Assembly: GCA_050506795.1 (NCBI GenBank) | Contig: JBJHCF010000001.1 | Span: 192,001 to 256,000 of the forward strand | DNA: 64,000 bases | Source of the DNA: Opitutia bacterium | Lineage (GTDB): Bacteria; Verrucomicrobiota; Verrucomicrobiia; Opitutales; T3Sed10-336 | Direction: 5' to 3' | Shown: positions 9,848-36,607 of the stretch, piece by piece | Position numbering within the stretch: the stretch's first letter is position 1 | How the letters are laid out: every line of letters begins with the position of its first letter | Notes under the pieces: generated by a model | Databases searched by the model: none | Seen by the model: only the letters and a program-made list of their open reading frames with translations | What the model was told of the DNA's origin: nothing | Position numbers and translations under genes: made by a program

Positions 9848-9905
9848 GTTTGCTGAGTGCCAACTGCATTTCCCGAGTCGGCGGGTACTCTTTTAGCTCC
9901 CGAAT

Positions 9906-10820: not shown

Positions 10821-11015
10821 ATGACCAAGCGAAAAATGAAGTTTATTCTCGCCGGGGTTCTGGCAGCCCTGGTGTTGGTGTTGGTCTTGCAGAACAGTCA
10901 CAATACCCCGGTGAGTTTTCTCTTCTGGAGTCGCTCGATGCCAACGCTGGTGGTGATCCTGGGCCCTTTTGTGATCGGATTTTTCGTTGGTCGTTTGCTT
11001 GCCTGGAGGCGTTGA
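10821..11015 (+). CDS. LapA / DUF1049 family small membrane protein
   Basis: TM helix - LQN...V.FLFW - TM helix pattern. Confidence 0.7.
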   Translation: MTKRKMKFILAGVLAALVLVLVLQNSHNTPVSFLFWSRSMPTLVVILGPFVIGFFVGRLLAWRR

Positions 11016-11051
11016 ATCGGTCCGTCTCGATCGCGTTTTGTTCTTACTCCG

Positions 11052-11465
11052 ATTAAAGGGACACTCCTTCGACTGGCGTTTATATCCCTTTCTCTGGTTT
11101 TTACGGCCTGTAAAGCCGGCCTGAATTCGGAATCGCCTCCGGTTCGGACGGTTCCGATCAACGAGGGTTGGTCGCGTAATTCGGTGAACGCTGTTATTTT
11201 TCGCGCCCACGCCGTGACCACTCACGAAGAAACCCAATACGCTTCCTGCTGCGACGATGACGGCCGCGTGATTCTCGCCCGCAGGACATTGGGAGACAGC
11301 GATTGGGAGGTGCACGATACCGGGTTTCGCGGTAATACTCGCGATGCGCACAACGCAATATCCATCGCCGTGGACGGCGCCGGGTACGTCCACCTGTCAT
11401 GGGACCATCGCGGGCACCCGTTGACTTTCCGTCCCGGAGTTCCCGAGTCTCCAATCTCCGCCTGA
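11052..11465 (+). pseudogene. Truncated BNR-repeat (BNR_4 family) lipoprotein remnant
   Basis: GWSRNSVNAVIFR...DAHNAISIAVDGAGYVHLSWDH is the family N-terminus; the frame begins ATT-AAA-GGG with lipobox VFTAC but has no ATG, and stops after ~137 codons. Confidence 0.7.
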
Positions 11466-11475
11466 GTAAACCGAT

Positions 11476-12870: not shown

Positions 12871-13066
12871 TAGGGATATGACAGTGACGATTTATTTGCT
12901 GAGGAAAAGGCAAAAATCGGCGCCCGATCGAAACGCGATCCTTAGCGAAAGAGCGGCTTTCGGATCGCGGAGCAAGCGAGTCGGCTTGTTTCCATATCCC
13001 CAATGATTTTGAGTTTACTCCCGCAAGCGAAGGGTTAATGTCGGCGTTAAATCCATCCATAATCCC

Positions 13067-19711: not shown

Positions 19712-19723
19712 GAAGTCCGCGTG

Positions 19724-20339
19724 GCTTCAATCGGGCCGCGCTCCGAGGAGCGCGGATACAACTATTTTCCATCCGGCCCCATCCTCATATTCTTGCTTCA
19801 ATGGGGCCGCGCTCCGAGGAGCGCGGATACGAGCCCGATGCCACAAGGAGGACTTTCTCCTGTATCCGCTTCAATGGGGCCGCGCTCCGAGGAGCGCGGA
19901 TACATCGCCAGCGGCATCCAAAGCGCCCTGCAGCGTTCGCTTCAATGGGGCCGCGCTCCGAGGAGCGCGGATACGTTTTTTCCATCACCCTCTACTACCC
20001 CCTCCCAACCTGCTTCAATGGGGCCGCGCTCCGAGGAGCGCGGATACGTTGCCTCCGGCGCCTGGTTCAGCCCTCCGGACCGCCGCTTCAATGGGGCCGC
20101 GCTCCGAGGAGCGCGGATACTGCCGAGCTTTATTCTTGGAGATAACAAACCAACCAACGCTTCAATGGGGCCGCGCTCCGAGGAGCGCGGATACTCGTCC
20201 GAATTCGGCGCTTATGCTACAAAGAAAACGGCTTCAATGGGGCCGCGCTCCGAGGAGCGCGGATACCCAAAAACAGCCCAAGACACAGTCCCACAACAAA
20301 GTAGCTTCAATGGGGCCGCGCTCCGAGGAGCGCGGATAC
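19724..20339 (-). CRISPR. CRISPR array: 9 repeats of 36 bp (GTATCCGCGCTCCTCGGAGCGCGGCCCCATTGAAGC) and 8 unique spacers of 35-38 bp
   Basis: Repeats start at plus positions 19724, 19795, 19868, 19939, 20012, 20085, 20159, 20231 and 20304; internal palindrome CCGCGCTCC..GGAGCGCGG; 3' ATTGAAGC handle; the only variant repeat is the distal one at 19724. Confidence 0.99.
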
Positions 20340-20560
20340 GGCAACTTCTTAAGTTGTTGAAAAGGAGGCGGATTCTCAAGCGTTTTCGCGCGGGGCTGGA
20401 AGCTGGATAGAGTATCGGTGATTTTGGGTGGATTTATGTCCAGGTTTAGGTTCGTCAAATAATTGAATGGCAATGATTGCGAGTGCCCACGGGGGCATTT
20501 TCACCACCAGGGCTCTCGCGGTTGCTGCAATCAATCTGTCAAAGAACGGCGAGGGCTTTT
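20340..20560 (-). promoter_or_regulatory. CRISPR leader
   Basis: Lower-GC non-coding region between cas2 and the first repeat, with GCGAG...CTCGC and TGTCAAAGAAC motifs often seen in type I leaders. Confidence 0.75.
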
Positions 20561-20851
20561 CTATACGACGTAGCAGGGGAGGTCCATCTTTGAATAGGTC
20601 ACGCCGATCGCGGTGATCGTTCGTTCTCCGCGGACGTGGCTGGGGCCGAGATCGACGAAAAGAACCTGATCTTCATCGTGGTTGATAAGGCTGTGCAGTT
20701 TTTCTTCAAACTCGGCCTTCTCCTTTGCTGTGAGGTCGCATTCGAAGACCGAAAGCTGAAGATGAACGCCATAGCCCTTGCAGGTCTTGAAAACTTTTCT
20801 CAACCGCTTGGGGTCGCAGATGTCGTAGGTGACGAAGAAATTTCGGCGCAT
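20561..20851 (-). CDS. cas2: CRISPR-associated endonuclease Cas2
   Basis: FVTYDICDPKRLRKV...GYGVHLQLSVFEC; adjacent to the leader. Confidence 0.95.
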   Translation of the reverse strand: MRRNFFVTYDICDPKRLRKVFKTCKGYGVHLQLSVFECDLTAKEKAEFEEKLHSLINHDEDQVLFVDLGPSHVRGERTITAIGVTYSKMDLPCYVV

Positions 20852-20868: not shown

Positions 20869-22650
20869 TTACCTATTCACAAACGGAATATACTGTTCGA
20901 TTTCTCCGGTAAGCACGCGGGCCAGAAGGCGGAACTGGAGTTCGAGGGCTCGGCGGTAGCTGACTTGATAGCCGAAAACGGGATGAGTGATCGGGCTGTT
21001 GATCCGTTTTTCGTAGGCCAGAAAGAACGTTTTCCTTCCGTTGGCGGACAGTGTGACCGAATCGCCGGCTCGGATGAAATCGGATTGGCGAAGCATGCTG
21101 TTGTTGATCAGGGTCAGGACCACGGAATCGGCTATGAGGGCGCGGAACTCCTCGAGGATATCCAGCGCGAGGGCGGGACGCCCAAAGCGCGGCTGATGGT
21201 AGAACCCCACGTAGGGATCGAAGCCGGCGGAGAATGCCGCCAGTGTGGCATCGCGGGCCAGGAGGCTGTAGGCGAGAGACAGCAGCGCGTTGACCGGATC
21301 GCGGGGAGGACGCCGGTTCCGGCCCTGGAAATCGAAAGGGAACTCGAGTTGACTTGCCTCGTCCTGCTCCTTTTGGGTCGGAGACTCTTTGCGGCTCTTG
21401 ATCATGCCCGCGAAATGCCCGAAATACAGGTTGGCCGCCGCGCCTTCGATTCCCAGGAGACTGCCGTTGCTGCTGGTGGCCAGGGCAGATCGGGCGAGAT
21501 TCTTCATTTGCCTGAGAACGTCCCTCGGAGCTTCAGTATGGTTGCGCATCAAAAGTGTGCGCTGATTGCGGATCTTTCCGTGAACGAAAAGCCGGGCGTG
21601 GCCGACCGCCAGTTCCGGGTCGGCCGCGTGCCGGAACTGTTCGATGCGGGTGAAGACGTTTTTGAGGCTGTGACCACGGGTCATTCCGTAGAACCAGCCG
21701 CCCATGGAGAAATAGGTTATGGGGATGTCGCGTTCACAGAGCGCCTGGATGGCGCCGGTGGAGACCTGGATCGGACCGAAGACCGCCAAGTGGTGAATGT
21801 CTTTGAGGCGGAATTCGCCGACCGTTTTAATTTTTTCTTTGGCGACGAGGGTTTCGTCCTTCTTACCGAGAAATAGACCGGGTGTCTGGAGGTACAACGC
21901 GCGGGTGTCATCGGCCGGAGCGATCAGGCGCCTGATGTCCTGACCGTTTTTTAATGAAGGCATCCGGATCTCCGGGATGCTGACGAATGGCCCCTGGGAA
22001 AGTCGATCCAGAGGGTCATCAATCGGCATATCGAAGGAGAGCTGCTCCGGTTCGGGGGTTTCGAGTGGGCGAATGTGTTCGGCGAGGAGCCGGGTTTCAT
22101 CCGGCAGACAAACACCGACCAGCGAGCACCGCGGACATTTCGGGGAATCATTCAAGGGTTCCGGAATCGATCCCCGCATGCATTGGCGAGCGGCCTCGAT
22201 TCGGTCGTAAATCCAAACTTCGGCTTTTTCATCCAGTTCGAAAGTCACCCGCTGCCGGGTTTCCCGGTAAAAAACAATCCCCCGGGCGCACGTGTAGCCG
22301 TTTTCGCGCAGGAGAAGAATTTGTACACCAAGCTGAATTTTATCGGCGTCCCAGAGTTCTTTTCCATCGTCACTTTCTCGGGGGCGGCCCTTTTTGTATC
22401 CGACTGGCTGATACTCGATGCTGCCGGATTCTCCGACGGCGCCCTCAACCAGATCCAGTTTCGCCGAGACACCCATGATGTCCGAGAAAAGCGAAACAGA
22501 GCGGGAGTAGATGGTTTCGGGGGGTGGTGGAGTAGGGGAGTGGTGGAGTTGTGGAGTGGGGGAGTCGGCGACCTCGGGTGTGGGAGACTCGGGGGATGCC
22601 AGGTTGGCGGGATCGGACTTCGACGGAGTTTTGGCTACCTCATAAGCCAA
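20869..22650 (-). CDS. cas1: Cas4-Cas1 fusion (type I-G); Cas1 looks intact, Cas4 domain 5'-truncated and motif-mutated
   Basis: Cas1 motifs LLGIEG, RRPPRDPVNALLSLAY, GFYH, LALDILEEFR; Cas4 keeps AKLDLVE and CPRCSLVGVC but lacks the first Fe-S Cys segment and has PVGYK instead of PV(D/E)YK. Confidence 0.9.
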   Translation of the reverse strand: MAYEVAKTPSKSDPANLASPESPTPEVADSPTPQLHHSPTPPPPETIYSRSVSLFSDIMGVSAKLDLVEGAVGESGSIEYQPVGYKKGRPRESDDGKELWDADKIQLGVQILLLRENGYTCARGIVFYRETRQRVTFELDEKAEVWIYDRIEAARQCMRGSIPEPLNDSPKCPRCSLVGVCLPDETRLLAEHIRPLETPEPEQLSFDMPIDDPLDRLSQGPFVSIPEIRMPSLKNGQDIRRLIAPADDTRALYLQTPGLFLGKKDETLVAKEKIKTVGEFRLKDIHHLAVFGPIQVSTGAIQALCERDIPITYFSMGGWFYGMTRGHSLKNVFTRIEQFRHAADPELAVGHARLFVHGKIRNQRTLLMRNHTEAPRDVLRQMKNLARSALATSSNGSLLGIEGAAANLYFGHFAGMIKSRKESPTQKEQDEASQLEFPFDFQGRNRRPPRDPVNALLSLAYSLLARDATLAAFSAGFDPYVGFYHQPRFGRPALALDILEEFRALIADSVVLTLINNSMLRQSDFIRAGDSVTLSANGRKTFFLAYEKRINSPITHPVFGYQVSYRRALELQFRLLARVLTGEIEQYIPFVNR

Positions 22651-22690: not shown

Positions 22691-22897
22691 TTACAATTTC
22701 CACTGCGAGCCACCGAAGCGCACGGGCTTCTTTCCTTTAAAAAACCTGGCGGCGTCGCTCGCCCACTGGCAATAACGCTTCCGGGCCTCGGCGGTTTGTT
22801 CAACGACGCGCGGACTGCGTTCCACAGGCGATTGTTTCCATCCGCGTTCGGTCAGTTCGCGGAAGGCGTTCCGATCATTGTTTGTCAGACGCTTCAT
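22691..22897 (-). CDS. Small basic hypothetical protein, likely partner of the nucleotidyltransferase
   Basis: 68 aa ORF overlapping the 3' end of the nucleotidyltransferase gene. Confidence 0.55.
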   Translation of the reverse strand: MKRLTNNDRNAFRELTERGWKQSPVERSPRVVEQTAEARKRYCQWASDAARFFKGKKPVRFGGSQWKL

Positions 22898-23438
22898 ACC
22901 ATTCCTTCATAGCGTCGAGCTTAGCCTCCAGTTGGAAGATTTTCAAATAGTCTGAGATCAAGTCCCAGTTTGGTTGACGATTCTCCTCGTAGCAATGTTC
23001 GAGGAGCAGACGAATATCCGCCCAGTCGGAAGTATTTCGCTTAGGGTCGTTGACAGTGGCTTGAATTTTCAGGCCGATGATATCTTCGATCGCAACTACG
23101 GGAACGCGTAGGGATTCGGTGATTTCGAGGCGTTCCGCCCTGTCGAGCATACTGAGTGTCGGACTGCGAAAGGCGTGAAGAAGATCGATGCGTCCCAGGT
23201 TCGCATCGTCGGAGACATAGTGGGAAACATTCTCGCTTTTGAATCCGCGACGGTACCCAAATTTTTCCAGAACGGCATGTGTTTTATCCAGATCCTTCAG
23301 CAACAGGATAAAGTCCAGGTCCACAGTCGCTCGCTGTACGCCCCTCAAGGCCATAGCGAAGCCACCGATGAGGGCGTATCGGGCTCCTTCTTCATCAAGC
23401 GCGCGGGTGAGCTGGTCGAGGACAGTGATGAAATTCAT
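22875..23438 (-). CDS. Nucleotidyltransferase-family protein (AbiEii/DUF6036-like, putative TA component)
   Basis: YALIGGFAM...RATVDLDF polymerase-beta motif, IIGLK, D.ADI. Confidence 0.8.
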   Translation of the reverse strand: MNFITVLDQLTRALDEEGARYALIGGFAMALRGVQRATVDLDFILLLKDLDKTHAVLEKFGYRRGFKSENVSHYVSDDANLGRIDLLHAFRSPTLSMLDRAERLEITESLRVPVVAIEDIIGLKIQATVNDPKRNTSDWADIRLLLEHCYEENRQPNWDLISDYLKIFQLEAKLDAMKEWYEASDKQ

Positions 23439-23529
23439 TGGTATCAGGAATGCTTGACGGACATCTTCATTCCAATCGATTTACCGGAAGATTCGCTCGC
23501 CTGTCGAGTTCGGCTTTAGGCTACGGCCT

Positions 23530-23958
23530 TTACTTCAGCGGATTCACTCGCCTGATGCCTTGAAAGCGATCGAAGTCGCGATCATTGCTGAAAACCGTGG
23601 CGGAATGCTCCATCGCGTGGAGAGTGATCAGGGCGTCAGTGGAAAGGTTGCCTCCTGTCCCCGCTTCCTCCAACAAATCAAAGAATCGTTCGGTCGCGTT
23701 TTCAGAAGGATTGAGCGTGCGGACGTGGGGACAGGACCACCAGACCGTTGTGATGGCGCGAACCTGATTCGTCGAAAGGGGATCCTCGCAAAGCTGGGGG
23801 TGAGTCATCAATCGTGTGAACGCCAGCAGCACGACCCAGGGAATGCCTATGGATTCGCCGCCTGACAAGGCGCCTTCCCACCAGGCCCTTGCTTTTTTAT
23901 GGTACGGCGAGGTTTCGTCGTAGGCGTAAATGAGAATGTTGGCGTCCGGGAGGATCAT
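23530..23958 (-). CDS. vapC: VapC family PIN-domain toxin
   Basis: MILPDANILIYA, GGNLSTDALI, SNDRDFDRF. Confidence 0.9.
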   Translation of the reverse strand: MILPDANILIYAYDETSPYHKKARAWWEGALSGGESIGIPWVVLLAFTRLMTHPQLCEDPLSTNQVRAITTVWWSCPHVRTLNPSENATERFFDLLEEAGTGGNLSTDALITLHAMEHSATVFSNDRDFDRFQGIRRVNPLK

Positions 23959-24209
23959 GGTTCCGCCACCCTCTGATTGGCTTCAGCCTCCACTTGGTCG
24001 TAAAGCTGATTCATGCTCATTCCCCGGTAGGCGGGTTTGATGCCGACTTTATGGGTTTGAATTCGGATTCGCTTGCGGGGCTGAGGGTCGGCGGCCAGTC
24101 CGCGTTGCAGGGTTTCCTCAAGAATCTCGCGCAGAGGCCGATTCCTCTCTTCCGCTCTGGCTCGCAAATCGCGTAGAATACCATCACTGATGTTGATTGT
24201 TGTCCGCAT
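23955..24209 (-). CDS. vapB: VapB-type ribbon-helix-helix antitoxin
   Basis: MRTTINISDGILRDLRARA; ATGA overlap with vapC. Confidence 0.85.
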   Translation of the reverse strand: MRTTINISDGILRDLRARAEERNRPLREILEETLQRGLAADPQPRKRIRIQTHKVGIKPAYRGMSMNQLYDQVEAEANQRVAEP

Positions 24210-24330
24210 AATAGACATCATGATGCCTAAACGCGAAAGGTCAAGACGCTCGTGCCTTTTCCCGGGTCGATCATTTCCGATCAGGGTCGTCTCGTGGAGA
24301 ATCCGTGGGTGGAGCGCTTGCCGCTTCGTT

Positions 24331-25527
24331 TCAGGAACGCGACGAGCGGTCTTCACCGGACGGGGGAAGGCGGAGTGATGCCTCTTTCGCCGAGGACTGC
24401 TGCAGCGAACCGGACGCCGTTCCGGAGCCGCCGGTCCTCGCTTCCCTTTTTCGGATTTTCGAACGAAACAGCAGGTAATGCTTTTTCAGTCGCTCGACAT
24501 AGGCGGCGTCTTGCAGGACTACGGCTTCAAAGAGACGCAGGAGAGCGCCGGCGTACTCGGATTGCGGATTCAGCGGATCGAGGGTGGCGCCGGCCATATC
24601 ATGAGCGTCGTTCGAATTACCTCCGAGCCAACGCGTGTAGAACGCCTCGTCCTCCCAACCGTAGTTGATTGTCGCCAGAACCGTCTCCGGTCGCTCGCTC
24701 GACCGTACCTGGATAAGGACGCGGCGGCAGTCGCATTCCGGATCGACGCAGTACAGTTCGATGAAACCGTAATCCCCGGCGGGCAGACCCGATTGCGGTT
24801 TCTGAAGCCTGACACCCCGCGTCTCGTTCGCGGCGAGTTCCGGAAATTCGCTCGCAAACGAAGCCATCGCCGCCATCGGCCTTTCCTCGGGGAATGCATC
24901 GTTTGTTTTCGGATCCGACTCGAATGAATCGTCCGTCTCGTCGGCCGGAAGGGGGAGATCGAGATTGAAGAAGAGGTCTCCGACGGCCTCCATGTTCTCG
25001 GTGGAGAGCGTATAATAAAAACCTTCCCAGCCGAAGCGACGGAAGAGACGGAGAATCGTGCGCGCGACAACTTCGGGAGGGTCATCCGGGTCTTCCCGAT
25101 AGTGCGGTTTGCCGTCGCAACCGAATGTGAACTCCTCGGAACAATCCGATGCGCGCACACCTCCGAAGACGCGCATGGCTTTCTTGAGGTTCCGATTTGG
25201 AGCAAAGCCCAACGCGCGGGCGTACTCAACGGCGCCCTCGATGATCTTTCGCGCGCACGCCGGATCGATCTCCGGGCACTCTCCGATTTCTTGGATCTCG
25301 CCTCGCCGCTGCTCGTCGAACTCTTCCTCAGAGATGACCCGGTAGACCGCGCTCATGACGCCCCGGCAGTGAACGTCGACAAAAACGATCCCGACCTCCA
25401 CCATGCCGCCTGATTTGCGCCGCGCTCCCAAAATACGTCCCCAGCCAATCTCGAACAGGTCGGCGTTCATATCGGCGATAAGTCGCTTCTTTTCGGACGA
25501 TGCCTTGTTCCCGGTCATGAAGGACAT
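24331..25527 (-). CDS. Two-domain hypothetical protein with Cys-rich ELYCVDPECDCRRV motif (domains typically seen in SEC-C-associated proteins)
   Basis: Long ORF; the TTG start at 25620 falls inside a degenerate CRISPR repeat, so ATG 25527 or 25518 is preferred. Confidence 0.65.
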   Translation of the reverse strand: MSFMTGNKASSEKKRLIADMNADLFEIGWGRILGARRKSGGMVEVGIVFVDVHCRGVMSAVYRVISEEEFDEQRRGEIQEIGECPEIDPACARKIIEGAVEYARALGFAPNRNLKKAMRVFGGVRASDCSEEFTFGCDGKPHYREDPDDPPEVVARTILRLFRRFGWEGFYYTLSTENMEAVGDLFFNLDLPLPADETDDSFESDPKTNDAFPEERPMAAMASFASEFPELAANETRGVRLQKPQSGLPAGDYGFIELYCVDPECDCRRVLIQVRSSERPETVLATINYGWEDEAFYTRWLGGNSNDAHDMAGATLDPLNPQSEYAGALLRLFEAVVLQDAAYVERLKKHYLLFRSKIRKREARTGGSGTASGSLQQSSAKEASLRLPPSGEDRSSRS

Positions 25528-25613
25528 TAGGACAAAATCACCCCCGAGACGGCAAGACCGGACGACTGACCGCAGCCATTTTGTCCGGTCGAGGGGCGTG
25601 GGACGAGAGGGGT

Positions 25614-25649
25614 ACTTCAATGAGGCAGCGCTCCGATGAGTGCGGATGT
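25614..25649 (-). repeat. Solitary degenerate CRISPR repeat
   Basis: Plus-strand ACTTCAATGAGGCAGCGCTCCGATGAGTGCGGATGT matches the array repeat at 29 of 36 positions in the same orientation. Confidence 0.85.
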
Positions 25650-25767: not shown

Positions 25768-26157
25768 TTACCTCCAAATGGTATCGATTCCGAAGGAAGC
25801 GAAAGCGCCGTCACGAGTGATCAGCGGGAGGTTTTCCGACTTTGACTGGGCGGCGAGCAGGCGATCGAAGGGGTCGCGGTGATCGTTCTCTATCAAGCCG
25901 GCGCGTTGCGCGTGAATGACGTCGAGGGGGAGGTGCAGCCAGCTTTCTTCGCGGGCGTTGCCCGCCAGATCCTGGATGAGACGTTCGGGAAGAGAAAGGC
26001 GGCCCAAGCGGTGTTTGTAGGTGATCTCGTAGGCCGAAACCGCGCTGAAGAAAATGCGGTTTCGCGGATCCCGGATCAGTCGTTGTGCTTTGCGGCTCAG
26101 GCGCTTTGGCGCACACCACCACCAGACCGCGGCGTGGGTATCGAGGAGGAAATTCAT
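25768..26157 (-). CDS. vapC: VapC family PIN-domain toxin
   Basis: FLLDTHAAVWW, FFSAVSAYEI, HRDPFDRLLAAQ, LITRD. Confidence 0.92.
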   Translation of the reverse strand: MNFLLDTHAAVWWWCAPKRLSRKAQRLIRDPRNRIFFSAVSAYEITYKHRLGRLSLPERLIQDLAGNAREESWLHLPLDVIHAQRAGLIENDHRDPFDRLLAAQSKSENLPLITRDGAFASFGIDTIWR

Positions 26158-26405
26158 TTCTCCGGGTCAATCGGCTGTTCCCATCGCGCCTGTTGGTCGT
26201 CATCGAGGGGCTCAAAGAACGCCTTGTCCGAAACGGGAGGCGCATCCGCGAACCGGCCGGGCGTGCGCTCCCGGGGAATTTCGGGGCTCAAACGGGCCAC
26301 CGGCTTGCCGTGGTTGGCAATGACGAACTCTTCCCCCTGTGCCACTCGCTTGAGAAGTTTGCTGAGCTGGGTCTTGGCCGCATGGATGTTGATCGTTTCC
26401 GCCAT
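26154..26405 (-). CDS. Phd/YefM family antitoxin
   Basis: INIHAAKTQLSKLLKRVAQGEEFVIANHGKPVARL; ATGA overlap with vapC. Confidence 0.92.
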   Translation of the reverse strand: MAETINIHAAKTQLSKLLKRVAQGEEFVIANHGKPVARLSPEIPRERTPGRFADAPPVSDKAFFEPLDDDQQARWEQPIDPEK

Positions 26406-26672: not shown

Positions 26673-27587
26673 TCAGACCGCTTGTGACGGAGTGAAGTTG
26701 CGGAATTTGCCGGTGGTGATGCGCTGGCTGCGGAAGACGGCGGCGATGCCGCGGGCGTGGAGTTCGGCGGGATCGGGTGAACCGGGCTGTATGTCTCGCA
26801 GGGCGAGGAGGGAACGTCCGGTGTCGAGGGTGATGGAGGGCATCCAGATCGGCCAGGTCCAGAATGTGTCGTTGCTGCGGTGTCCGGTGAATCCGGTGGT
26901 TTTGAGGTGAGTGCCAACCGGAAAAGTCGGCAGCAAGGGAAGGGCTTCGATGGCGAGGCGGTTCGCGCCGTGTTGGGTGCGGGTGGGGTCTTGACTGGGA
27001 TTTTTCCATGCCAGCGCATAGCGTTTGTCTTCGGCGGGATCCCAGCGAAGGCCGATTTTTTCATCGGGGTAGGTCCAGGTCTCAAACAAGGTGTTCCGGA
27101 GTTGCTCCTCGGTGGTGATTTCCGCGAGGTCGTTCATGGTCTTGAGGAAGTGTTGGTGTCCCGCTCCGCTCATAGTGCGCAGGGCGGTGTCCTCAATGTC
27201 GCCTTGCTCGTTGATCGCCACAGAGGAGCCGAAAGCGGCGAAAAAGGCGGCGGAAATCCGGTCATCCTCATCAAACCAACGCTCCATTGCCGCCTTGGCT
27301 TCCTTTTCGAATTCGCCGGGTTTGAGTTTGAGGTTTTGTGAGAAGGTGAAGACCCGGTGTTGGTGCATTTTCGCCAGCTCCGTGTGGAGTTGTGCAATGA
27401 AGGCGTCGCGTTCCAAGGGCTGGTGAAGGGAAAGCACCGGCGCCCAGTGCCCGGCGTGGGGTTTCCAGTGGAGTTTGGTGCCGGACTGAATCTGGTCGGC
27501 GATGCGCCACGTGCCGAGGACGGCGAGAAAGCCGAGTGGGTTGGCGCCGTCGAGGCCGGGAAGGGGAAGCGGGTGGAGGTCGTTCAT
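26673..27587 (-). CDS. csb3: Type I-G (I-U) Cas8g2/Csb3-type large subunit
   Basis: LPGLDGANPLGFLAVLG N-terminus, LRWDP.ED.RYAL, GANRLAIEALPLLP, WTWPIW; ATGA overlap with cas3. Confidence 0.75.
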   Translation of the reverse strand: MNDLHPLPLPGLDGANPLGFLAVLGTWRIADQIQSGTKLHWKPHAGHWAPVLSLHQPLERDAFIAQLHTELAKMHQHRVFTFSQNLKLKPGEFEKEAKAAMERWFDEDDRISAAFFAAFGSSVAINEQGDIEDTALRTMSGAGHQHFLKTMNDLAEITTEEQLRNTLFETWTYPDEKIGLRWDPAEDKRYALAWKNPSQDPTRTQHGANRLAIEALPLLPTFPVGTHLKTTGFTGHRSNDTFWTWPIWMPSITLDTGRSLLALRDIQPGSPDPAELHARGIAAVFRSQRITTGKFRNFTPSQAV

Positions 27588-30371
27588 GATGCGGCGGTGG
27601 TTTCGAGATTGGCGGTGTCATCGGTATACCATCCTTCGGCCTCGGCTTCGCTGGCCTGCTGGTCCGCGAGGCGCAGGATGGCTTCGAGGAAGGAGAGTCC
27701 CCAAGGTCCGTGTTGGCGGAGCAATCTCCAGAAACGGTCGGGGATACCTGAGTCGAGGCGGTGGGCGGGTTTGTCCTTGCGCTCGCTTCCGGAGATGGAG
27801 ATGGCGGGTGCGCCGGGCAGACTTTGGGTGCCAAGCGGTGGCGGATCGGGATCGTCGATGACCGGGGCGAAGGGGCGGGCGTGTCCGTGGTGGGCGGCGA
27901 TGAGGTGGAACGCGAGATCGCGAAGGCCGGCGGCATCGGGCAGAAGGTCCGCCGCGTCCGGGTGGGTGGCAAGCGGGAGCGAGCTGAATTCGTGTCGGAA
28001 GCCTTTGGGCAATGCGGAACGTCGGTGCGCGAGTTCCCGTTCGCGGAGGCTGGCGGAGAGGCGGTCGGATTTGGCCAGGGGCTCCGGAAGGGCGTAGGCG
28101 GCGTGTGGGTTGCCGCCGAGGAGCAAGGCCTGAAAGCGCGGATCGAGTTTGCCCCAGTCGTGCAGATCAGCGGCGGCGGCGAGGCAATTCCGGATGTCTT
28201 CGCTCAGTCCGAGAGCCCGGGCACTGGCGACGACGAGATCCCTGACGTGATCGGTGTGTGCACACAGGGTCACCGGACCGGTGCCGGTGGCGCGGCTCCA
28301 TTCGTCGGCTTCGTCTTCGGCTTGAGTGATAACTTGATTCTGGCGGAGGCGATCACGGAGGCGGCGGCGGGTGGTGAGAACGATGCCGCGTTCGTCGGCA
28401 TAGCGTGCTTGGGTGAATCCGAGTTTGTGCAGGGAAATCAGTAATTCCTTTAGATGCTGAAAACGGGCTTCCTCCTGCGAAGCTTCTTTAAGTAGGTTTC
28501 GCAGCTCTCTCTGGTTCAGACTTGCGTCCGGATCGTCGGCATACTGGATGAGTTCCTGCCAGGCTTCCCTGCCGCTTACGCCGGGAAACAAGTCAGCGCG
28601 GAGGCGAAGCAAGGCCCGGTCGTGGGTGATGCGGAAGGCCTCTTCCGCACGGTCGATGGGAAGAAGTTGGTCCAATGGGAGCGGCTCTTCTTTTTCTTTA
28701 AGACTCCCCGGATCGGTTGGGGCACCTGGAATGTGTCCGAGCTGGCTCCAGCCGCCAAGGGTGAGGGGAAGGACAATGGTGTCGCCGGGGTAAAGGTCTC
28801 CCGGTCGCTCGATCACTTTGCTTTCGGAAGCTCCTCTCCACAGGAGCGCGGTGCCGATTGGCTCTTTTGGGTCGTTTCGACCTGCCGGTGCGTCGGCGGA
28901 GGCGGCCGCGTCGAGCACGTCGCCGGTGTCGGCGAGGACGGCGGTCTTCGCGTTCGACTTGAAAAACCAGTTCTGGAAAACGTGCAGGGGAACGGGGAGG
29001 GCTTCGACTTGCGAGGGCGGGCAAAGGCTGAGGTTCTGAATCGCGGCATCAGGATCGGCATTCTCCGGAAGGTCGGCCCGCCAGAGAACGAGAACATCCG
29101 GGCGGGCGGTCTGCTTACCGTGGAGGAAAAGCGCGGGATCGGGATCTGGCCAGGGGGCGGGATTGGTTTGCGCCCAGGCGTCGAGGTAGGCGGGGAAGAG
29201 GGGCGGCGCGGACGAGGTCGGAGCTTGGAGGCGGTTGAGTTCCTCCTCGGGAAGATTCTTCACGAGCTCGCCCATGTGGGTGAGTCCGAAGTCGACCGAG
29301 TTCCCGGAGGCGACGGATTGGAGCCAGTTCCAGGTTTCCGACAAGGCGTTGCCGTAGATGGGGTCGAGCGGTTGGCCGTCGGCGGCGAGTTTGTCCAATT
29401 TCTTGCGATCGGTTTCGATCAGGTGGCCCGGCATAACGATGCACCCGGTGGCCGGGATGTCGCGTCCGGCACGGTTGAGGCGGCCGAAGCGTCGGCGGAG
29501 GGCGTCGAGGCTGGCGCATTCCGTGACGAGGCCGTCGAAGTCGAGGTCGGCGCCGACCTCAAGGCACTGAGTGGCCACGACAACTTCCACTGGGGGCGGT
29601 GTTTCGCCGTCGGGGATTGGTTCGCGCCGGGCGGCGGTTTTGAGGGCGGCCTGGATGCGTTGGGTTTCGGCGTCGCGGTCGATGGGGCGCATCCGCCCGA
29701 TCAGGAGAGAGGTGTTCGCCTGAAAGCGGGCCTTTTTTGATTTGGATTCCTTTGCGACCAAGTCGGCGACCAGGCGGGCGGTGGCCACGCGGTTAACCAT
29801 GATGGCGAGCGAACGCGGCGTGGTTTCGGCAATGATGGCGGCCGCTTGGTCGAGGAGGTCGGCGGCGAGGGTTTCCTGCTCCCTGGCCTTGGTTTTTGCC
29901 GAAGAGATTGTCAGGCGAACCGGCTTGGTGGCGTTCAGGCGTTTGGTCAGCACCGGGTGCTCGCGGTCGGCGTCGGTGAGGGCGATCGTGTTTGTGGCAC
30001 CCTTTGGAGGCGTGGCGGTCATCTGCACCCAGCGCAGTGGCGGCGGCTTTATGGAGTCCGGGTTTTGGGCGATATGGTGTTCGCGAAAGCGTTGGAGCGC
30101 GGCCACGGTTTCGGCGAAGGGGCGGCTGATGTGGGCTTCGTCGAGAATCCACAGCGCATCCGTTGCGACCAAGGCGGCGTGGATGGGCCTGGGCGGCAAG
30201 CGCATAGACCGTCATTTCGAGACAGGCAGTCTTGCCGCTGCCCGTAGGCGCGGCGATGAAATCGGGCCAGTCCCCGGCAACCGCGCGTTCGGCAAGCTTG
30301 CGTTGCCAGGGGAAGAGAGTGTGGCTGTCGTTAAGTTCGGCGAAAAATTCAGCGAAGGTGGGGAGGGTCAT
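27584..30371 (-). pseudogene. cas3: Type I-G Cas3 (SF2 helicase with C-terminal HD nuclease), disrupted by an internal deletion and frameshift at ~30182-30190
   Basis: N-terminal piece MTLPTFAEFF..FPWQ..APTGSGKT..LAAQAH is in one frame and RPIHAALVATDALWILDEAH..QMTATP..ATQCLEVGADLD..HDWGK..RHE..HHG..RLAD in another; the expected VVDRR and STVDQ/SRLLFRGYG motifs are absent. Confidence 0.85.
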
Positions 30372-30415: not shown

Positions 30416-30441
30416 GCTGACTCGCATGCGCTCGCCGACGC
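30416..30441 (+). repeat. Left copy of a 26-bp imperfect inverted repeat flanking the HEAT-nuclease gene
   Basis: GCTGACTCGCATGCGCTCGCCGACGC versus the reverse complement of 31400-31425, GCTAACTCACTTTCGTTCGCCGACGC (21/26 identical). Confidence 0.65.
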
Positions 30442-30483
30442 CTTCCGGCAGATCGCCTGATGCAGATTATGGGTCATGTGTGA

Positions 30484-31380
30484 TCAGGACAGGTGGTAGC
30501 CGAAGAGCGAGAGTTTGTTTCGGAGGATCCTGTCGAGGTTTGGTTTGTCGCGAGGGGAGATTGAGATGAGGCGTTTGCCTTCCTGTTGATAGAGTTGCTG
30601 TTTCTTCAGCATGCCGATCTTGTAGTCGGCGGTATCAAGTCCCCAATATTCGATGTAGATGTCTAGTTCCGGGAGATAGAAGTCGGGTCGGATCGCATGA
30701 CCGTTGAGGATGCGGTAACGTTCGTCGTAGCGGTAGGCGATATTGTTGGCGCTGAGCCAATCCGCGATTTTCCGTTCGCCGTCGGACTGCACCAGAGTTC
30801 CGGCCTTGGCGGTGATTTGTTTGTTGAGTTCGACTTTGGTTTCAAAATTGCGTCGTGCGAGGAAGACCTCATCAAAGCACGGATCGCAGTAGTTGCGTTG
30901 GAATGCCTGTTGGCTTTTTGTATGCTCTTCCGGGGAAATCTCGCGTCGGCAGCGAATGCATTTGTGGCGAGCGTTTTCCTGCTCTAGACGGATGGCTTCA
31001 CGAATCGCTTCGGCGGCGGAATGGGCGGCCCGGCGGACGTAGTCCTTGATCTGTTCGTTAGAGGAGAGATCGTCGAGGTCGGCGAGGTGGTCTCTTGCGA
31101 ACGCGCCGAAGGATTTCATGGCCTTGAGGGCGTATTGTTGGACTTGGGGGTGAGGGTCGCGTAGGGCGATGGGCAACAACGCGGGAATCGCCGTGGAGCC
31201 ATCGGCTCCGAAGGGAGCGAGCTTGGCGATGGCGGATGCGGCGAGCCGGCGGACTTCGGCGGACGGGCTGCGAAGAAAACGGATCAGTTCATCCAGTGCA
31301 TCAGGATCGGCGCTGCGTCCAAGTTCAAGAGTGCGCTGAACGTGTTCATGATGTTGCCGGCGATCCATGTGAGTCTTCAT
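30484..31380 (-). CDS. HEAT-repeat / C4 zinc-ribbon / PD-(D/E)XK-like (DUF559/Vsr-like) nuclease-domain protein inside the cas operon
   Basis: HEAT-like units (SPSAEVRRLAASAIAKL; DPHPQVQQYALKAM), CIRC...CDPC, then SDGERKIADWL..IAYRYD..RPDFYLPELDIYIEYWG. Confidence 0.75.
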   Translation of the reverse strand: MKTHMDRRQHHEHVQRTLELGRSADPDALDELIRFLRSPSAEVRRLAASAIAKLAPFGADGSTAIPALLPIALRDPHPQVQQYALKAMKSFGAFARDHLADLDDLSSNEQIKDYVRRAAHSAAEAIREAIRLEQENARHKCIRCRREISPEEHTKSQQAFQRNYCDPCFDEVFLARRNFETKVELNKQITAKAGTLVQSDGERKIADWLSANNIAYRYDERYRILNGHAIRPDFYLPELDIYIEYWGLDTADYKIGMLKKQQLYQQEGKRLISISPRDKPNLDRILRNKLSLFGYHLS

Positions 31381-31399
31381 TATTGAGCCTTGAAATATA

Positions 31400-31425
31400 G
31401 CGTCGGCGAACGAAAGTGAGTTAGC
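31400..31425 (-). repeat. Right copy of the 26-bp imperfect inverted repeat
   Basis: See 30416-30441. Confidence 0.65.
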
Positions 31426-31449: not shown

Positions 31450-32652
31450 TCACTCGGGCACTCCCTTCCTCCAGGGTTTGCACAAGCCATACCCACGGTA
31501 GCGGCCGGCTCCAAGGAGTACCGGACCGAGGACGGGGCGGTCGAAGCGTAGCCAGACGTGGGCCTGGCGGCGGTTGGGGCCGCCGGGGCGGGTGGGCATG
31601 AGGGGATAGCCGTCAGGGCCGGGCTTGGTGCGCGGTGCGCCGCGGTGCGGGTGTTCCGAAGGTTTGCCGTCAGATTGGTGGCCGTTGACCCATTCCGGGG
31701 TGGGGGCGGTATGTTTTTCAATGGCACCGCGCAGGGCGGTGAGCAGTTGCCAGGTGGATTCGAGTCCAAGGTTGGGGCCTTCCCGTTTGTCGAGAATGAG
31801 GAGGGCGTCGTCGAATACGGTGGAGACGGGTAATGCTTCGTCCGGGTTGTTGGAGAGGCGTTGGTAGGCTTGGGTCATGCTGAGGACGGGGCGACGGGAA
31901 CCGGGTGCGGCGAGGCTTGCCTTCCACGGAACTCCGAATTCGGCTTCAAACTCGGCCTTAACCGTTTTTTGCTCTTTCCCTTTGGTTGATTGGATGCGGG
32001 TGTAGAAATCGTAGAACCGATCCACCGCTTCGCCGTTGTATTGTTCGCGGAGGTAGTCGAGGCAGCCGGGGCCGGGCATGCGGAATCGCTCTAGAGATCT
32101 GGTCCCGCTTTCTTCCTGAGTGGGCACCCAGCCGGATGGTTCGTCCGGGGGATTCTCGCTCAACCACATGCGGACCAGGGACGAGGAATGCCCGATGCGG
32201 ATGACTTTCGCGCAGATCCGCTCCAATGCGTCGCGTTGCGTATCGGTCGGTTCCGCCGCAGGCCAATGAAGATAGAGCATCGACTGGTGGGGACGGACTT
32301 TCGGGAAGGTGCGTGGCTGGCGGTTGGTGCGGTAGGCCGGAATGATCGTCCGTTTGGTCGGCCCCATGTCGTTGGGCGGAACAAATACGTCCACGACATC
32401 GCGACGGTCAATGGTCTCCGAACCGAAGATCAGCGGTGCTTCGAGCTTTTCCAGCCAGCGCAACGCCTCTTCCTCATGTTGCCATGACTGAATGGCAGCC
32501 GTTTCCGAAGGGGTTGGACGGGATTCGAAATAAGCCGCCGCCATGGCCATGAAGACGCGCCCGGGGTGGGGCGGCCACTCCGCCACCGCACGGTCGCCCG
32601 TGGATGTGGCGACCGCGTAACCGGTGAGATATTCGATGCCGAGGGTGAGCAT
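31450..32652 (-). CDS. csb2: Type I-G Csb2 (Cas5/Cas6 fusion), probably with an in-frame deletion in the Cas6-like half
   Basis: AEWPPHPGRVFMAMAAA, ALRWLE, IGHSSSLV, C-terminal GPVLLGAGRYRGYGLC; PSEHPH runs directly into RGAPR without the usual LP..GH.ADG and W.TVTP blocks. Confidence 0.85.
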   Translation of the reverse strand: MLTLGIEYLTGYAVATSTGDRAVAEWPPHPGRVFMAMAAAYFESRPTPSETAAIQSWQHEEEALRWLEKLEAPLIFGSETIDRRDVVDVFVPPNDMGPTKRTIIPAYRTNRQPRTFPKVRPHQSMLYLHWPAAEPTDTQRDALERICAKVIRIGHSSSLVRMWLSENPPDEPSGWVPTQEESGTRSLERFRMPGPGCLDYLREQYNGEAVDRFYDFYTRIQSTKGKEQKTVKAEFEAEFGVPWKASLAAPGSRRPVLSMTQAYQRLSNNPDEALPVSTVFDDALLILDKREGPNLGLESTWQLLTALRGAIEKHTAPTPEWVNGHQSDGKPSEHPHRGAPRTKPGPDGYPLMPTRPGGPNRRQAHVWLRFDRPVLGPVLLGAGRYRGYGLCKPWRKGVPE

Positions 32653-32655
32653 GGA

Positions 32656-33867
32656 TCAGTCTCCGTCTTCGTCGGTGGCTTCGGCGGCGGCGATTTCCTG
32701 ACTGCGCTGGAGAAGCTCGACCAACTGAGGAGCTGGTGTGAGTTTGAGGGGTTCCTTGCGCCATGTAAGGCCAACCTTTTCGGCAGCGGCGACGGCCGAC
32801 TTCAGCGTCCGGATGGCGGAGTCGGCATCAATGGTCAGAACGGAAGGTTTCGCGCCCGGCTTTTCGAGAAGCTCCCATTGAAGTTCTGCTTCTGGCCAGA
32901 GGAGACAGCGGGAGCGAAGATCGTAACCGTTTTCGGCGGCGAGGGCCGAAGCGGTCAGAGCGAGGGCCGCAAGGACGGTTCGCCCGGCGGCATCGGATTC
33001 GGTGGTGGGAGCGCCACCATTGATGGGGAAGCGTAGACGGCGCAACGCAGGGAGGGAAAGGACCGTGGTCTGCTCGGCGTAGTCGATGGTGACGCCGCCT
33101 GTCTTTCGATCCACATCCGGAGGAATATTGCCGTGGTTGACTTCCGAGGGCGACACCGCGCTCTTGGCGGAATCGCTTTTCGCCAAAGTATATCCATCTT
33201 TCGATTTCATGACCTTGGCAGCGGCACGAATTTGCATTGGGTCGATACGGCTGCTGGTTTTGGCGCCGGTTTGTGCGTTGATGCCCACAATCTCCGAAAC
33301 CAGCGCCCGCTGGAACTTCGCGCCCAAGCCGCCCTTCGGGCCGGTGGAATCCCAGATCCCGAAGATCAGGGCCGTCGGGCAGATTTCGTAAAGCGGGGTG
33401 GCGTTGTTGAGACTGGCGTAGTCGAGCTTTTTGCCAATGTCGGATTTGCGGAAGGGAGTGTTGTCGAGGAGACTGTCGCGCAGAATGGCATCCGCCGCGC
33501 GGTGGGGGGCCTGCAGACTCGTGATCCGCCCGATTTCGTCGATGAGTTTAAGGCCCGAGAAATCGACTTCGATGAGTGGAATCGGGCAATCGTCGAAGCG
33601 TCCGGCATCGATGGCCAGTTGGAGCGCTTCTTCGAGGCGGTTGGCCTGCGACTGAACGGAGTCCATGAGGACGCACGGGATGGTAGCGCAAGAGCCGTCC
33701 GGTTGTTTTACGCGACGTTCTTCGGTGGCATAGACCGCGCCGGCATAGGTAGGCGGAAAGGCTTTGTCGCCTTCGCCCCCCGCGGGTTGGAGGCGCGTGC
33801 GGGCGCGGAATGCCGCAGCGGAGCCTGAGACGGCGGATTGGAGAGTCTGGAGGTCGATTAATTTCAT
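32656..33867 (-). CDS. csb1: Type I-G Csb1 / Cas7u backbone protein
   Basis: LQPAGGEGDKAFPPTY, DSVQSQANRLE, APHRAADAILRDS, PTALIFGIWDS, PSEVNHGNIPP, YDLRSRCLL. Confidence 0.92.
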   Translation of the reverse strand: MKLIDLQTLQSAVSGSAAAFRARTRLQPAGGEGDKAFPPTYAGAVYATEERRVKQPDGSCATIPCVLMDSVQSQANRLEEALQLAIDAGRFDDCPIPLIEVDFSGLKLIDEIGRITSLQAPHRAADAILRDSLLDNTPFRKSDIGKKLDYASLNNATPLYEICPTALIFGIWDSTGPKGGLGAKFQRALVSEIVGINAQTGAKTSSRIDPMQIRAAAKVMKSKDGYTLAKSDSAKSAVSPSEVNHGNIPPDVDRKTGGVTIDYAEQTTVLSLPALRRLRFPINGGAPTTESDAAGRTVLAALALTASALAAENGYDLRSRCLLWPEAELQWELLEKPGAKPSVLTIDADSAIRTLKSAVAAAEKVGLTWRKEPLKLTPAPQLVELLQRSQEIAAAEATDEDGD

Positions 33868-33933: not shown

Positions 33934-34182
33934 TCAAGCGTTGTTCAACCCGGCCTGACTCTTAATTGTGGCGAATCCGCCTGAATTAAAAGGGGGATTT
34001 AAGACGGTTTCCCGAATGCTGAGCCAGGCGAGGACCACGCCGGCGGTTTTGCCGAGGCCGGTGGGGATGTCGATGAGGCGGGACTGGCAGGCAGGGTCTT
34101 CCGCGAGGCGGCGTTGCCAGTCGTAGGGTTCCGGCGCGCCGGAAGCGGCGGCTTGAAAAAAGCCCGGGTAGGAAAGCTTCAT
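33934..34182 (-). pseudogene. cas3: 5' stub of a second, different Cas3 (copy B), truncated after ..GVVLAWL
   Basis: FFQAA..PYDWQRRLA..LIDIPTGLGKTAGVVLAWL (Q motif plus Walker A) followed by unrelated AT-rich sequence. Confidence 0.8.
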
Positions 34183-35785: not shown

Positions 35786-36319
35786 TCATTCTCCGTCTCC
35801 TTTCGCGTGAAAACCGATGGATCTTTTTGGCTTTTCGGGCGGAGGCTGGAGCAGGGGCAGGAGTTTCTGGTAGAGGTCCCAGAGGGCTTGGTCGTGTTGC
35901 ATGAGGGTTTTGTCGATTTCAGCCAAGCGTTTGAGGATGGTGGTATTGGCCATGAGTTCCTCGCGCATCTTCACAAATGCCCGGATGACGTAAACGCTCA
36001 TCGCAACCGCCCGCTCGGAGTTCAGGGTTGTCGAGGCCATGAGCGCGCCGTGCTCGGTGAAGACCCAAGGGAGTGTGCGTCGTCCTCCATGGGAACTTGA
36101 AATCACAGATTGTGATATCAAGTTTGTAAACTCCTCTCGATTAAGCTGAAAGGCGAATTCTTCAGGAAAGCGTTTTCGGTTGCGCTTAAATGCTTGGTTG
36201 AAAACCCGGGTCTCTACGTCGTAAGCGGAGGCGAGGTCGCTATCCACGATAACGTGAGTTCCGCGAATGTAGTGGATCCGAGGGTTTTCAAGCATGGGGG
36301 AAGAAGGTTTGTCGTTCAT
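35786..36319 (-). CDS. ORF6N (KilA-N-like) DNA-binding domain protein
   Basis: IRGTHVIVDSDLASAYDVETRVFNQAFKRN..RFPEEFAFQL, PWVFTEHGALM, VIRAFVKMR, C-terminal IGF. Confidence 0.9.
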   Translation of the reverse strand: MNDKPSSPMLENPRIHYIRGTHVIVDSDLASAYDVETRVFNQAFKRNRKRFPEEFAFQLNREEFTNLISQSVISSSHGGRRTLPWVFTEHGALMASTTLNSERAVAMSVYVIRAFVKMREELMANTTILKRLAEIDKTLMQHDQALWDLYQKLLPLLQPPPEKPKRSIGFHAKGDGE

Positions 36320-36607
36320 TGTTTATGTTCGGGCCAGGGTTTGCAGAGGCCATACCCACGGTAGAGCGGCCGGCTCCGAAGAGAACCCGAGGCCGGGGCG
36401 GTCGAAGCGCAGCCAGACGAGGACCAAGCCGACGGTTTTCCCGAGGCCGGTGGGGATCCTCCGCCACGCTTTGCCTGCTTTGGAGGACAACTTGCCGATG
36501 GGGCGGGATTGGCAAGACGGGTCTTCCGCGAGACGGCGTTGGCAGCCGCAGGGTTTCGGCGCGCTGGAAGTGGCGGCATTAAAGAAGTCCGGGTAGGAAG
36601 GCTTCAT
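36316..36607 (-). pseudogene. Chimeric remnant: Cas3 5' stub (copy A) fused to the extreme 3' end of a csb2 gene
   Basis: 36411-36607 is homologous to 34022-34182; 36335-36419 is homologous to the csb2 end at ~31472-31559 (VWLRFDRP..GAGR..YRGYGLCKPW), with frameshifts. Confidence 0.85.

Follow-up and report, generated by a model that had tools for sequence, protein, structure and literature searches.

In a 64,000-nucleotide stretch of DNA from an Opitutia bacterium (contig JBJHCF010000001.1, positions 192,001 to 256,000), referred to here as the window, one small gene for a predicted nuclease is preserved within a decaying type I-G operon of the CRISPR defence system (named after short palindromic repeats that are clustered and regularly interspaced). 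The gene, termed the H gene as shorthand for a HEAT/zinc-ribbon/Vsr-like nuclease gene, encodes the 298-residue protein P0001 and lies at 30484-31380 on the minus strand, between csb2 and cas3g. It is the sole cargo of a unit of about 1 kb that is bounded by an imperfect inverted pair of 25 nucleotides (nt) and is present in some related operons and absent from others. We interpret the H gene as an autonomous mobile nuclease cassette that is linked to CRISPR by its location and is neither a Cascade subunit nor a replacement for Cas3, an interpretation in which our confidence is about even.

A repeat-bounded gene in the csb2-cas3g spacer

The H gene translates without stops and shares its strand with its type I-G neighbours, as an earlier sequence-only reading of the window had described. 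P0001 matched the PADLOC-DB v2.0.0 model PDLC01150, 'HEAT_CxxC_PD-DEXK', from end to end (E 2.4e-117, 389 bits), with residues 5-291 aligned to model positions 1-285 of 288, and the same profile found the gene as a single copy in the source genome (E 2.2e-116). All three parts of the PDLC01150 architecture are present in P0001, with HEAT repeats followed by two CxxC pairs and a PD-(D/E)xK-type domain. P0001 is a full-length member of this catalogued, uncharacterised family, so that the earlier description of the protein as undescribed has to be withdrawn. We take the PDLC01150 profile to stem from the CRISPR-neighbourhood surveys of the Koonin group. The full-text literature searched contained no description of the family's activity, structure, mobility or flanking repeats, although the supplements of CRISPR-neighbourhood surveys may list the family; the filled and empty sites and the two-lineage structure reported below were likewise not found in that literature.

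The downstream terminal inverted repeat, CTGACTCGCATGCGCTCGCCGACGC, lies at 30417-30441 on the plus strand, 42 nt past the stop codon of the H gene and 45 nt ahead of the cas3g ATG. It was located by a genome-wide motif search and by the consensus of the clade to which the window's gene belongs, from which it differs by one mismatch. The upstream repeat, at 31400-31424 and identified by repeat comparison, reads CTAACTCACTTTCGTTCGCCGACGC on the minus strand and is placed 19 nt ahead of the ATG of the H gene. The two arms agree at 19 of 25 positions and are the only copies, and the only pair, in the 4.94-Mb genome when up to five mismatches are allowed. Together they delimit the unit 30417-31424, with which the outer bounds proposed from the sequence alone, 30416-31425, coincide. 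Short-range inverted repeats were absent within 60 nt, the relevant pair being about 960 nt apart. A scan for promoters and terminators around the H gene gave no promoter-like site and a single weak terminator-like hairpin that was no better than shuffled sequences.

The same spacer was then compared among the loci of relatives, which are labelled with L-numbers. With the clade consensus, exactly one inverted pair was found around the gene in all seven H-bearing variant I-G loci (the window, L064, L103, L109, L110, L112 and L114), where the repeat-bounded units measure 961-1008 bp. None of the five H-less I-G loci of the same csb1-csb2-cas3g-extension order (L182-L186) has such a pair. In four of these, csb2 and cas3g are about 10-60 nt apart, and the fifth, L185, holds a different small insert. 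Thus, the gene shows a presence/absence polymorphism at a defined intergenic site, and its termini travel with it. The insert in L185 (G174:C47) is about 500 nt long, and its translation resembles ORF6N/KilA-N by eye; the csb2-cas3g junction may be an insertion hot spot.

In relatives, one arm precedes the start codon by about 16-19 nt and the other coincides with or overlaps the stop codon. A related motif brackets many members of a clade that has no cas genes nearby. When the upstream flank was compared with the reverse-complemented downstream flank in 132 family loci, a score of at least 13 was obtained in 32, a level that the maximum of 20 shuffles reached in only 4. The flanking motif was confined to the gene's own locus in four of five other genomes, and none was found in the fifth. 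In L042 and L043, near-identical H genes lie one inside and one outside a cas locus, with 90% nucleotide identity from about 35 nt upstream to the end of the reading frame. A series of the motif was seen in L077 (G287:C116), where six copies upstream and five downstream follow each other in a tandem-like manner at a spacing of about 33-41 nt, at the H locus only.

A single gene between inverted copies of a conserved short motif, with core-genome contexts in one clade, recalls the RAYT transposases and their repetitive extragenic palindromes (REPs). The H motif, however, is not dispersed, and the H protein is a restriction-fold nuclease whereas RAYT is a Y1 transposase. REP-like dispersal was rejected because the motif has two copies in 4.94 Mb at up to five mismatches and occurs in other genomes at the gene's own locus only.

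Substitution rates were determined against the closest relative, L064 (H gene at 9441-10373). The ratio of nonsynonymous to synonymous rates (dN/dS) of the H gene is 0.118, with 0.20 for the HEAT half and 0.06 for the nuclease half, which indicates that the gene is under purifying selection while the neighbouring cas3g and csb2 are broken. At 0.93, its dS is over double the values for csb1, csb2 and cas3g (0.35-0.42). The cassette has therefore probably been exchanged independently of its neighbours, which fits allele replacement by recombination. A second decayed I-G locus with an intact H gene was found in L112 (VHCO01000156.1, ~10935-13437); only residues 1-78 of its cas3g remain, the first 57 residues of the extension gene are missing and cas4/1 is fragmented.

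In the proposed mechanism, the csb2-cas3g spacer of a variant type I-G operon would have received a cassette of about 1 kb. The cassette would move horizontally as an autonomous unit, and its nuclease would act in the cassette's own interest, through homing-like cutting of empty sites or some stand-alone useful function. As favoured and well-expressed landing sites it would use the spacers within type I cas operons, typically those next to cas3 or cas4. A more specific version can be formulated, in which a minimal mobile element with 25-nt terminal inverted repeats homes into such spacers in bacteria of the Planctomycetota-Verrucomicrobiota-Chlamydiota (PVC) group and either arms the operon or, as a parasite, promotes cas deletion. 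The window and L112 have both lost cas3g sequence that begins 65-78 codons from the cassette. We regard this version as speculative and rather unlikely.

The Vsr-like nuclease domain

Pfam covers only the N-terminal half of P0001, with matches to HEAT_2 (E 1.7e-11, residues 19-88), HEAT, HEAT_EZ and Arm, and an NCBIfam scan of the protein gave no match. The HEAT-repeat domain comprises residues ~7-136 with seven helices (30973-31362, minus strand). Its profile matches alphaRep and PBS-type HEAT proteins in the PDB (E 8e-38), in agreement with Foldseek (alphaRep), and the solenoid is likely a protein- or DNA-docking surface. The zinc-ribbon segment follows at residues ~138-170 (30871-30969, minus strand) with the pairs C141-x2-C144 and C165-x2-C168. 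All four cysteines are invariant in 64 of 64 aligned family sequences, and weak Pfam zinc-ribbon matches occur among the members (DUF1272 in 44 of 64, Zn_ribbon_2 in 15 of 64).

The remaining part, residues ~186-291 (30508-30825, minus strand), was assigned as a Vsr-like PD-(D/E)xK nuclease domain from VIA-align, Foldseek, PHROG and PADLOC PDC-S69 results. Two PADLOC phage-defence candidates, PDC-S69 (E 6e-21) and PDC-S68, match the C-terminal third of P0001, and PHROG endonuclease and resolvase families are matched weakly (E 1e-6 to 1e-7). Invariant in the 64-member alignment are E202, D219, R231-P232-D233-F234-Y235-L236-P237, Y242, E244, W246, G247, K260 and K269. The HEAT repeats, the CxxC pairs and the PDFYLP..IYIEYWG motif picked out in the sequence-only reading are thus confirmed, the first by the Pfam HEAT families and the others by the invariance of the cysteines and motif residues.

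An AlphaFold2 model of P0001, based on the 64-sequence alignment, reached a predicted local distance difference test (pLDDT) score of 92.3 and consists of seven HEAT-type helices, a small ribbon and an alpha/beta domain. Because a fold search with the full-length model returned alphaRep/HEAT proteins only, the C-terminal half was folded separately. The model of the C-terminal 161 residues alone (pLDDT 86.8) most closely resembles the catalytic domain of homing endonuclease I-Bth0305I (PDB ID: 3r3p), with a VIA Z of 9.4 and a root-mean-square deviation of 3.3 over 92 residues; Foldseek gave E 5e-3 and probability 1.0 for the same structure. E. coli Vsr (1cw0) followed with Z 8.7 and a DUF559-like protein (3hrl) with Z 8.2. 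Further structural matches were to RAP-domain proteins, Bax1, VRR-NUC, TnsA and Hjc, and the next unrelated folds reached only Z of about 5-6. No PDB chain was found at E 10 or lower when the C-terminal half was used in a sequence-profile search. Pfam Vsr (PF03852) stayed below its gathering score: the best E was 0.012, and the 23 of 64 members that reached E 1 or lower did not include the domain from the window. From the structure models, the C-terminal domain has a Vsr-like restriction-endonuclease fold, in line with the Vsr/DUF559-like fold suggested earlier from the motif.

According to work on I-Bth0305I, Vsr-type enzymes use Glu25, Asp51, His64, His69 and Asp97, and the general base is a histidine, His69 in Vsr and His213 in I-Bth0305I (PMC3239194). 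By position in the alignment and the model, D233 of the 'RPDF' motif and E202 in the first helix are plausible counterparts of Vsr D51 and E25. No histidine occurs among the columns of the C-terminal domain that are invariant or at least 90% conserved in the 64 sequences. The H family thus has the fold of Vsr without its EDxHD catalytic signature. An active, metal-dependent DNA endonuclease is predicted from the invariant acidic residues E202, D233 and E244 together with the lysines K260 and K269.

That the C-terminal domain is structurally closest to the catalytic part of an 'EDxHD' homing endonuclease supports the cassette reading. I-Bth0305I is likewise a selfish nuclease gene product with bipartite binding and nuclease domains, but it is described as intron-encoded, with NUMOD/helix-turn-helix DNA-binding repeats and an E-D-x-H-D catalytic set (PMC3239194). 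The H family, in contrast, combines HEAT repeats with a zinc ribbon; its genes are free-standing in intergenic positions with inverted repeats at either end, and its nuclease domain contains no invariant histidine. Vsr and DUF559-type domains belong to the same fold class and have the PD-F...(acidic)-x-x-G strand pair in common with the H family, whereas His64 and His69 of Vsr (numbering as in PMC3239194) are without an invariant counterpart in it, and there is no evidence for mismatch specificity. Cas4 is a further restriction-fold nuclease with four cysteines that is encoded in type I operons, and the H gene often adjoins cas4. The cysteines of the H protein, however, form a separate ribbon N-terminal to the nuclease domain, and the H gene co-occurs with cas4 rather than replacing it. 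P0001 gave no match to Cas4 profiles in PADLOC, Pfam or NCBIfam.

Eleven longer forms of the family were found, with esterase or nitroreductase genes as fusion partners. In the cas-free clade the reading frame sometimes continues into a downstream esterase (AXE1/dienelactone hydrolase) or nitroreductase gene, which yields proteins of 550-700 residues. Such run-on forms were seen in L069 (G392:C112) and in P0123-P0131, and are recurrent since one cluster holds 47 member sequences. An apparent 526-residue 'Cas6e fusion' in L060 was discarded as an artefact of open reading frame (ORF) calling, its N-terminal part being rich in Arg and Ala and without a match to the Cas6e hidden Markov model (HMM).

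Distribution and CRISPR context of the family

Of 5597 candidates from a protein search, 2229 were relatives. Identity to P0001 is 71-85% for the best 120, and the named ones among them are from Verrucomicrobia/Opitutales. In a 401-genome sample of the phylum, 61 genomes carry the family; they represent 46 of 185 genera, and a single genome can have as many as four copies. In a species-representative collection, relatives are encoded by 452 of 577 candidate stretches. The labels of the best 80 of these 452 loci are Verrucomicrobiota, Opitutales, Kiritimatiellae and Lentisphaeria, with two bins labelled Planctomycetota and several unlabelled.

Gene context was surveyed in both flanks (at most 10 kb each) of 71 copies, by calling ORFs, clustering the neighbours, naming them with PADLOC and running the cluster HMMs on all ORFs. 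With the window included, cas genes were present at 21 of 72 loci of the phylum sample (I-C 9, I-E 6, I-B 3, I-G 3), all within type I operons, which bears out the cas linkage that the sequence-only reading had put forward for testing. The same HMMs found cas genes within 10 kb at 27 of the best 80 loci of the wider collection. The H gene is embedded, co-oriented, in cas operons far more often than expected by chance. I-C copies are usually arranged as cas7c-H-cas4, I-B copies as cas4-H-cas1 or H-cas4, and I-E copies occupy three different positions. Eight loci that appeared to contain 'Cas3 only' share one layout. The four that were scanned (L122, L107, L116 and L126) are classical I-G loci with csx17, csb2 and csb1, the csb1 scan covering all but L126, and with cas4/1 in L122. 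Occurrence at different positions in four subtypes supports independence from Cas function, as the cassette reading would have it.

A tree of 137 members was built after fragments of fewer than 250 residues and same-genome duplicates had been dropped; a quick method was used, and its support marks need caution. The window falls in a well-supported clade of 32 members, of which 20 are linked to I-G, 1 to I-C and 11 to no cas genes. Seven of these 11 are on contigs shorter than 10.3 kb and four have long cas-free flanks. A second clade, comprising 52 members, is devoid of cas genes over a range of about 10 kb; in the other clades, copies linked to I-B, I-C, I-E or I-G occur together with unlinked ones. 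Cas labels cluster on the tree, with 20 changes versus 36.9 in shuffles, and none of 500 shuffles reached 20. Three I-G arrangements were recorded, csb2-H-cas3g at seven loci, cas3g-H-csx17 at six and H-cas3g at two.

This pattern leads to the question whether the H protein is a true CRISPR ancillary nuclease. Its HEAT domain would then dock on Cas3g or on Cas4/Cas1-Cas2, the nuclease would contribute an extra interference cut or prespacer processing, and the repeats would mark the acquisition of the gene. The frequency of cas genes around the family argues for such a role, as do the dominance of I-G in the window's clade and the position of I-G copies directly beside cas3g in all three arrangements. 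I-C and I-B copies lie beside cas4 at the boundary between interference and adaptation genes. The H gene always has the orientation of the operon and lies close to its neighbours (18 nt separate it from cas3g in L064), the family is named in PADLOC-DB, and the gene is under purifying selection. The fidelity of the clade to I-G and the persistent cas3g adjacency keep a role of this kind alive. Nevertheless, the gene is optional: it adjoins Csb1 in only 3 of 23 Csb1-bearing genomes and is absent from all five fetched operons of otherwise identical csb1-csb2-cas3g-extension order, so it does not behave as a core type I-G component. It is also intact where cas3g and csb2 carry deletions. The 52-member sister clade is cas-free, with Pfam-scanned neighbours that are mostly housekeeping or metabolic genes. 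Cas1 was detected in 41 of 61 carrier genomes of the phylum sample, versus 187 of 340 others, and thus a third of the carriers (20 of 61) show no adaptation module. Finally, none of the 11 longer forms contains a Cas domain. An ancillary function is therefore a possibility to be taken seriously, if a somewhat improbable one.

Several observations weigh against the cassette reading. No transposase, integrase, intron or intein accompanies the H gene, and a nuclease alone cannot explain why inverted repeats should be needed for movement. A clear target-site duplication was not found around the insert, where at most CCG / CC is repeated. The repeats of the window are identical at just 19 of 25 positions, and the next-best matches in the genome have 6 mismatches versus 5, so that the case for a cassette rests largely on conservation of the pair across relatives. 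Most I-C, I-E and I-B copies are without an inverted pair, and some have direct repeats of a hairpin-plus-leader instead. Cas linkage also exceeds what simple hitch-hiking would give, since 21 of the 32 members of the window's clade are cas-linked and 7 of the other 11 lie on the short contigs mentioned above. In two I-G gene orders the H gene stays beside cas3g, always in the same orientation and at tight spacing. Among known plasmids and phages, no full-length copy was found; the matches were partial, covered the C-terminal nuclease only and many fell under UvrD-helicase genes.

Copies outside cas operons bear on two further explanations. The H protein could be a stand-alone innate defence factor, a restriction-like or abortive-infection nuclease with a HEAT sensor, that accumulates in defence islands including cas operons. 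The matches of its C-terminal domain to PDC-S69 and PDC-S68 point in this direction, some non-cas copies adjoin type IIG or type I restriction-modification genes, Snf2/HKD, RmrA or PDC-S03, and the cas locus of the window also hosts a PIN toxin gene with a possible antitoxin ORF and an AbiEii gene. However, 58 of 68 scanned neighbours of non-cas copies (those of L064 not counted) had no PADLOC match. In the cas-free clade the Pfam-scanned neighbours are mostly ordinary genes, namely those for gyrase/topoisomerase IV subunits, uvrB, hisB, ribF, rsmB, aminotransferases, glycoside hydrolases and transport proteins, and only a few have no Pfam match or belong to Schlafen, dynamin or restriction-modification families. 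Among unlinked copies outside that clade, those of L032, L033 and L035 have polA as their immediate upstream neighbour, whereas rho, coaE and ruvX are near L038, L047 and L059. Surroundings with gyrase/topoisomerase IV, polA, uvrB, hisB, ribF, rho and glycoside hydrolase genes are no defence island, and a primary role in defence appears distinctly unlikely.

The same surroundings could instead suggest a housekeeping nuclease for DNA repair or processing in PVC bacteria, with cis-regulatory repeats (operator/terminator or pairing of mRNA ends) and incidental cas adjacency. Several of the core-genome contexts are DNA-related, with polA in the three loci named above, gyrase/topoisomerase IV in L048, uvrB in L092 and ruvX nearby, and the repeat motif accompanies the gene without being dispersed. 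Against this stand the occurrence in just 61 of 401 genomes, with multi-copy cases, the location of the window's clade overwhelmingly within cas operons and the presence/absence polymorphism at a fixed intergenic site. We consider a housekeeping function very improbable.

The decaying type I-G operon

The proteins of L064 are 82-94% identical to those of the window and served as the reference for the operon, all genes of which are on the minus strand. Upstream, csb1 (cas7g; 32656-33867, 403 residues) is intact, with a match to Pfam Cas_GSU0053 (E 1.6e-54) and 94% identity to Csb1 of L064. The adjacent csb2 (cas5/6g; 31450-32652, 400 residues; NCBIfam TIGR02165, PADLOC Cas56g) has an in-frame deletion of about 141 codons with a junction near 31641-31648. 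In a tblastn search of the window with the 542-residue Csb2 of L064, residues 1-336 and 478-542 align and nothing between them. Downstream of the H gene, cas3g (27584-30371) is broken into two frames, both pieces of which match NCBIfam TIGR02621. One frame contains the N-terminal 65 codons (30371 to ~30183), the other the body (30205-27584, 873 residues). Comparison with L064 by tblastn and blastn showed that 335 nt are missing at a junction near 30183-30195, by which Cas3g residues 66-178 are lost and the frame is shifted.

Thus, cas3g is broken by a deletion and a frameshift. The sequence-only reading had recognised the disrupted cas3, but had missed the csb2 deletion, the repeat-bounded and optional nature of the insert and the large sister clade without cas linkage. 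A separately assembled Logan contig from another assembler crosses both deletion junctions without differences; as it comes from the probable source sample, it supports the assembly only and is not independent evidence. The ends of the alignments to L064 overlap by 8 nt at the csb2 deletion (31641-31648) and by 13 nt at the cas3g deletion (30183-30195), and such overlapping ends suggest that both arose via microhomology.

The further operon genes are a type I-G 'Cas3-extension' protein of 304 residues (26673-27587), labelled Cas8g in PADLOC (NCBIfam NF049934, E 2.7e-79; PADLOC PDLC01514, E 2.3e-99), a cas4/1 fusion of 593 residues (20869-22650; Pfam Cas1 and Cas4) and a 96-residue ORF (20561-20851) read as cas2 from its size and position. 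A Cas2 HMM match lies somewhere in window positions 20001-42000 and was not assigned to this ORF. A repeat search located a CRISPR array of 9 repeats at a spacing of 71-74 nt (19718-20340; no strand assigned). No Csx17-type large subunit was found in the window by Pfam, NCBIfam and PADLOC scans.

Since the H gene is the sole intact nuclease gene next to the Cascade genes in the window, the sequence-only reading had raised the idea that its product substitutes for the disrupted Cas3 as the Cascade-linked nuclease. Yet the H gene stands beside a full-length cas3g in at least nine relatives, five of which have the gene order of the window (L064, L103, L109, L110 and L114) and four the classical order (L122, L126, L107 and L116), which argues that it is not a Cas3 replacement. 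In addition, csb2 itself is truncated, so that Cascade is probably damaged too and a functional complex is doubtful. The window also yielded no Csx17-type large subunit. A replacement of Cas3 by the H protein is hardly credible.

Other remnants of cas genes were observed in the surroundings. An 82-residue ORF upstream of csb1 (33934-34182, minus strand) is a stub of a cas3g N-terminus whose best match is another Cas3g subfamily, PDLC01770 (E 2.5e-12), and not the type of the locus's own cas3g (PDLC01769); it has no counterpart in L064. The stub looks like a scar left by recombination with a second I-G locus or by its replacement. Short pieces of a csb2 C-terminus, YRGYGLCKPW and another stretch of 13 residues, lie at 36334-36424 on the minus strand, 2.5 kb upstream of the operon, and adjoin an ORF6N gene (35786-36319), a further sign of a decayed or rearranged cas locus. 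Elsewhere in the source genome, a second Cas1 gene (359-residue frame; G000:C3:150891-151790) probably indicates another CRISPR-Cas locus in the organism.

Between the effector genes and cas4/1, at 22875-24356 on the minus strand, are the PIN toxin gene with its small upstream ORF, the possible antitoxin, and the gene for the AbiEii nucleotidyltransferase; the cas locus of the window collects other small defence or addiction genes as well. Two further minus-strand ORFs, of 429 residues (24331-25620) and 144 residues (25811-26245), have no match in Pfam, NCBIfam, PADLOC or PHROGs. In L064, an 813-residue protein with a 2OG-Fe(II) oxygenase domain, which PADLOC lists as cas-associated, is encoded after the cas3-extension gene (2844-5285, minus strand) and is without counterpart in the window.

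To our knowledge, few accessory genes of type I CRISPR systems have been recognised. The H family is embedded in four type I subtypes, yet has apparently never been tested. Should its nuclease act together with Cas3 or with the adaptation machinery, an ancillary activity new to type I systems would have been found. A selfish cassette directed at cas operons would represent a mobile element of a new sort, and one that possibly drives the decay of CRISPR loci. Natural examples of filled and empty sites and of decayed loci have now been identified, and the clean split between cas-embedded and core-genome lineages provides a natural comparison for the recruitment of a nuclease to CRISPR loci.

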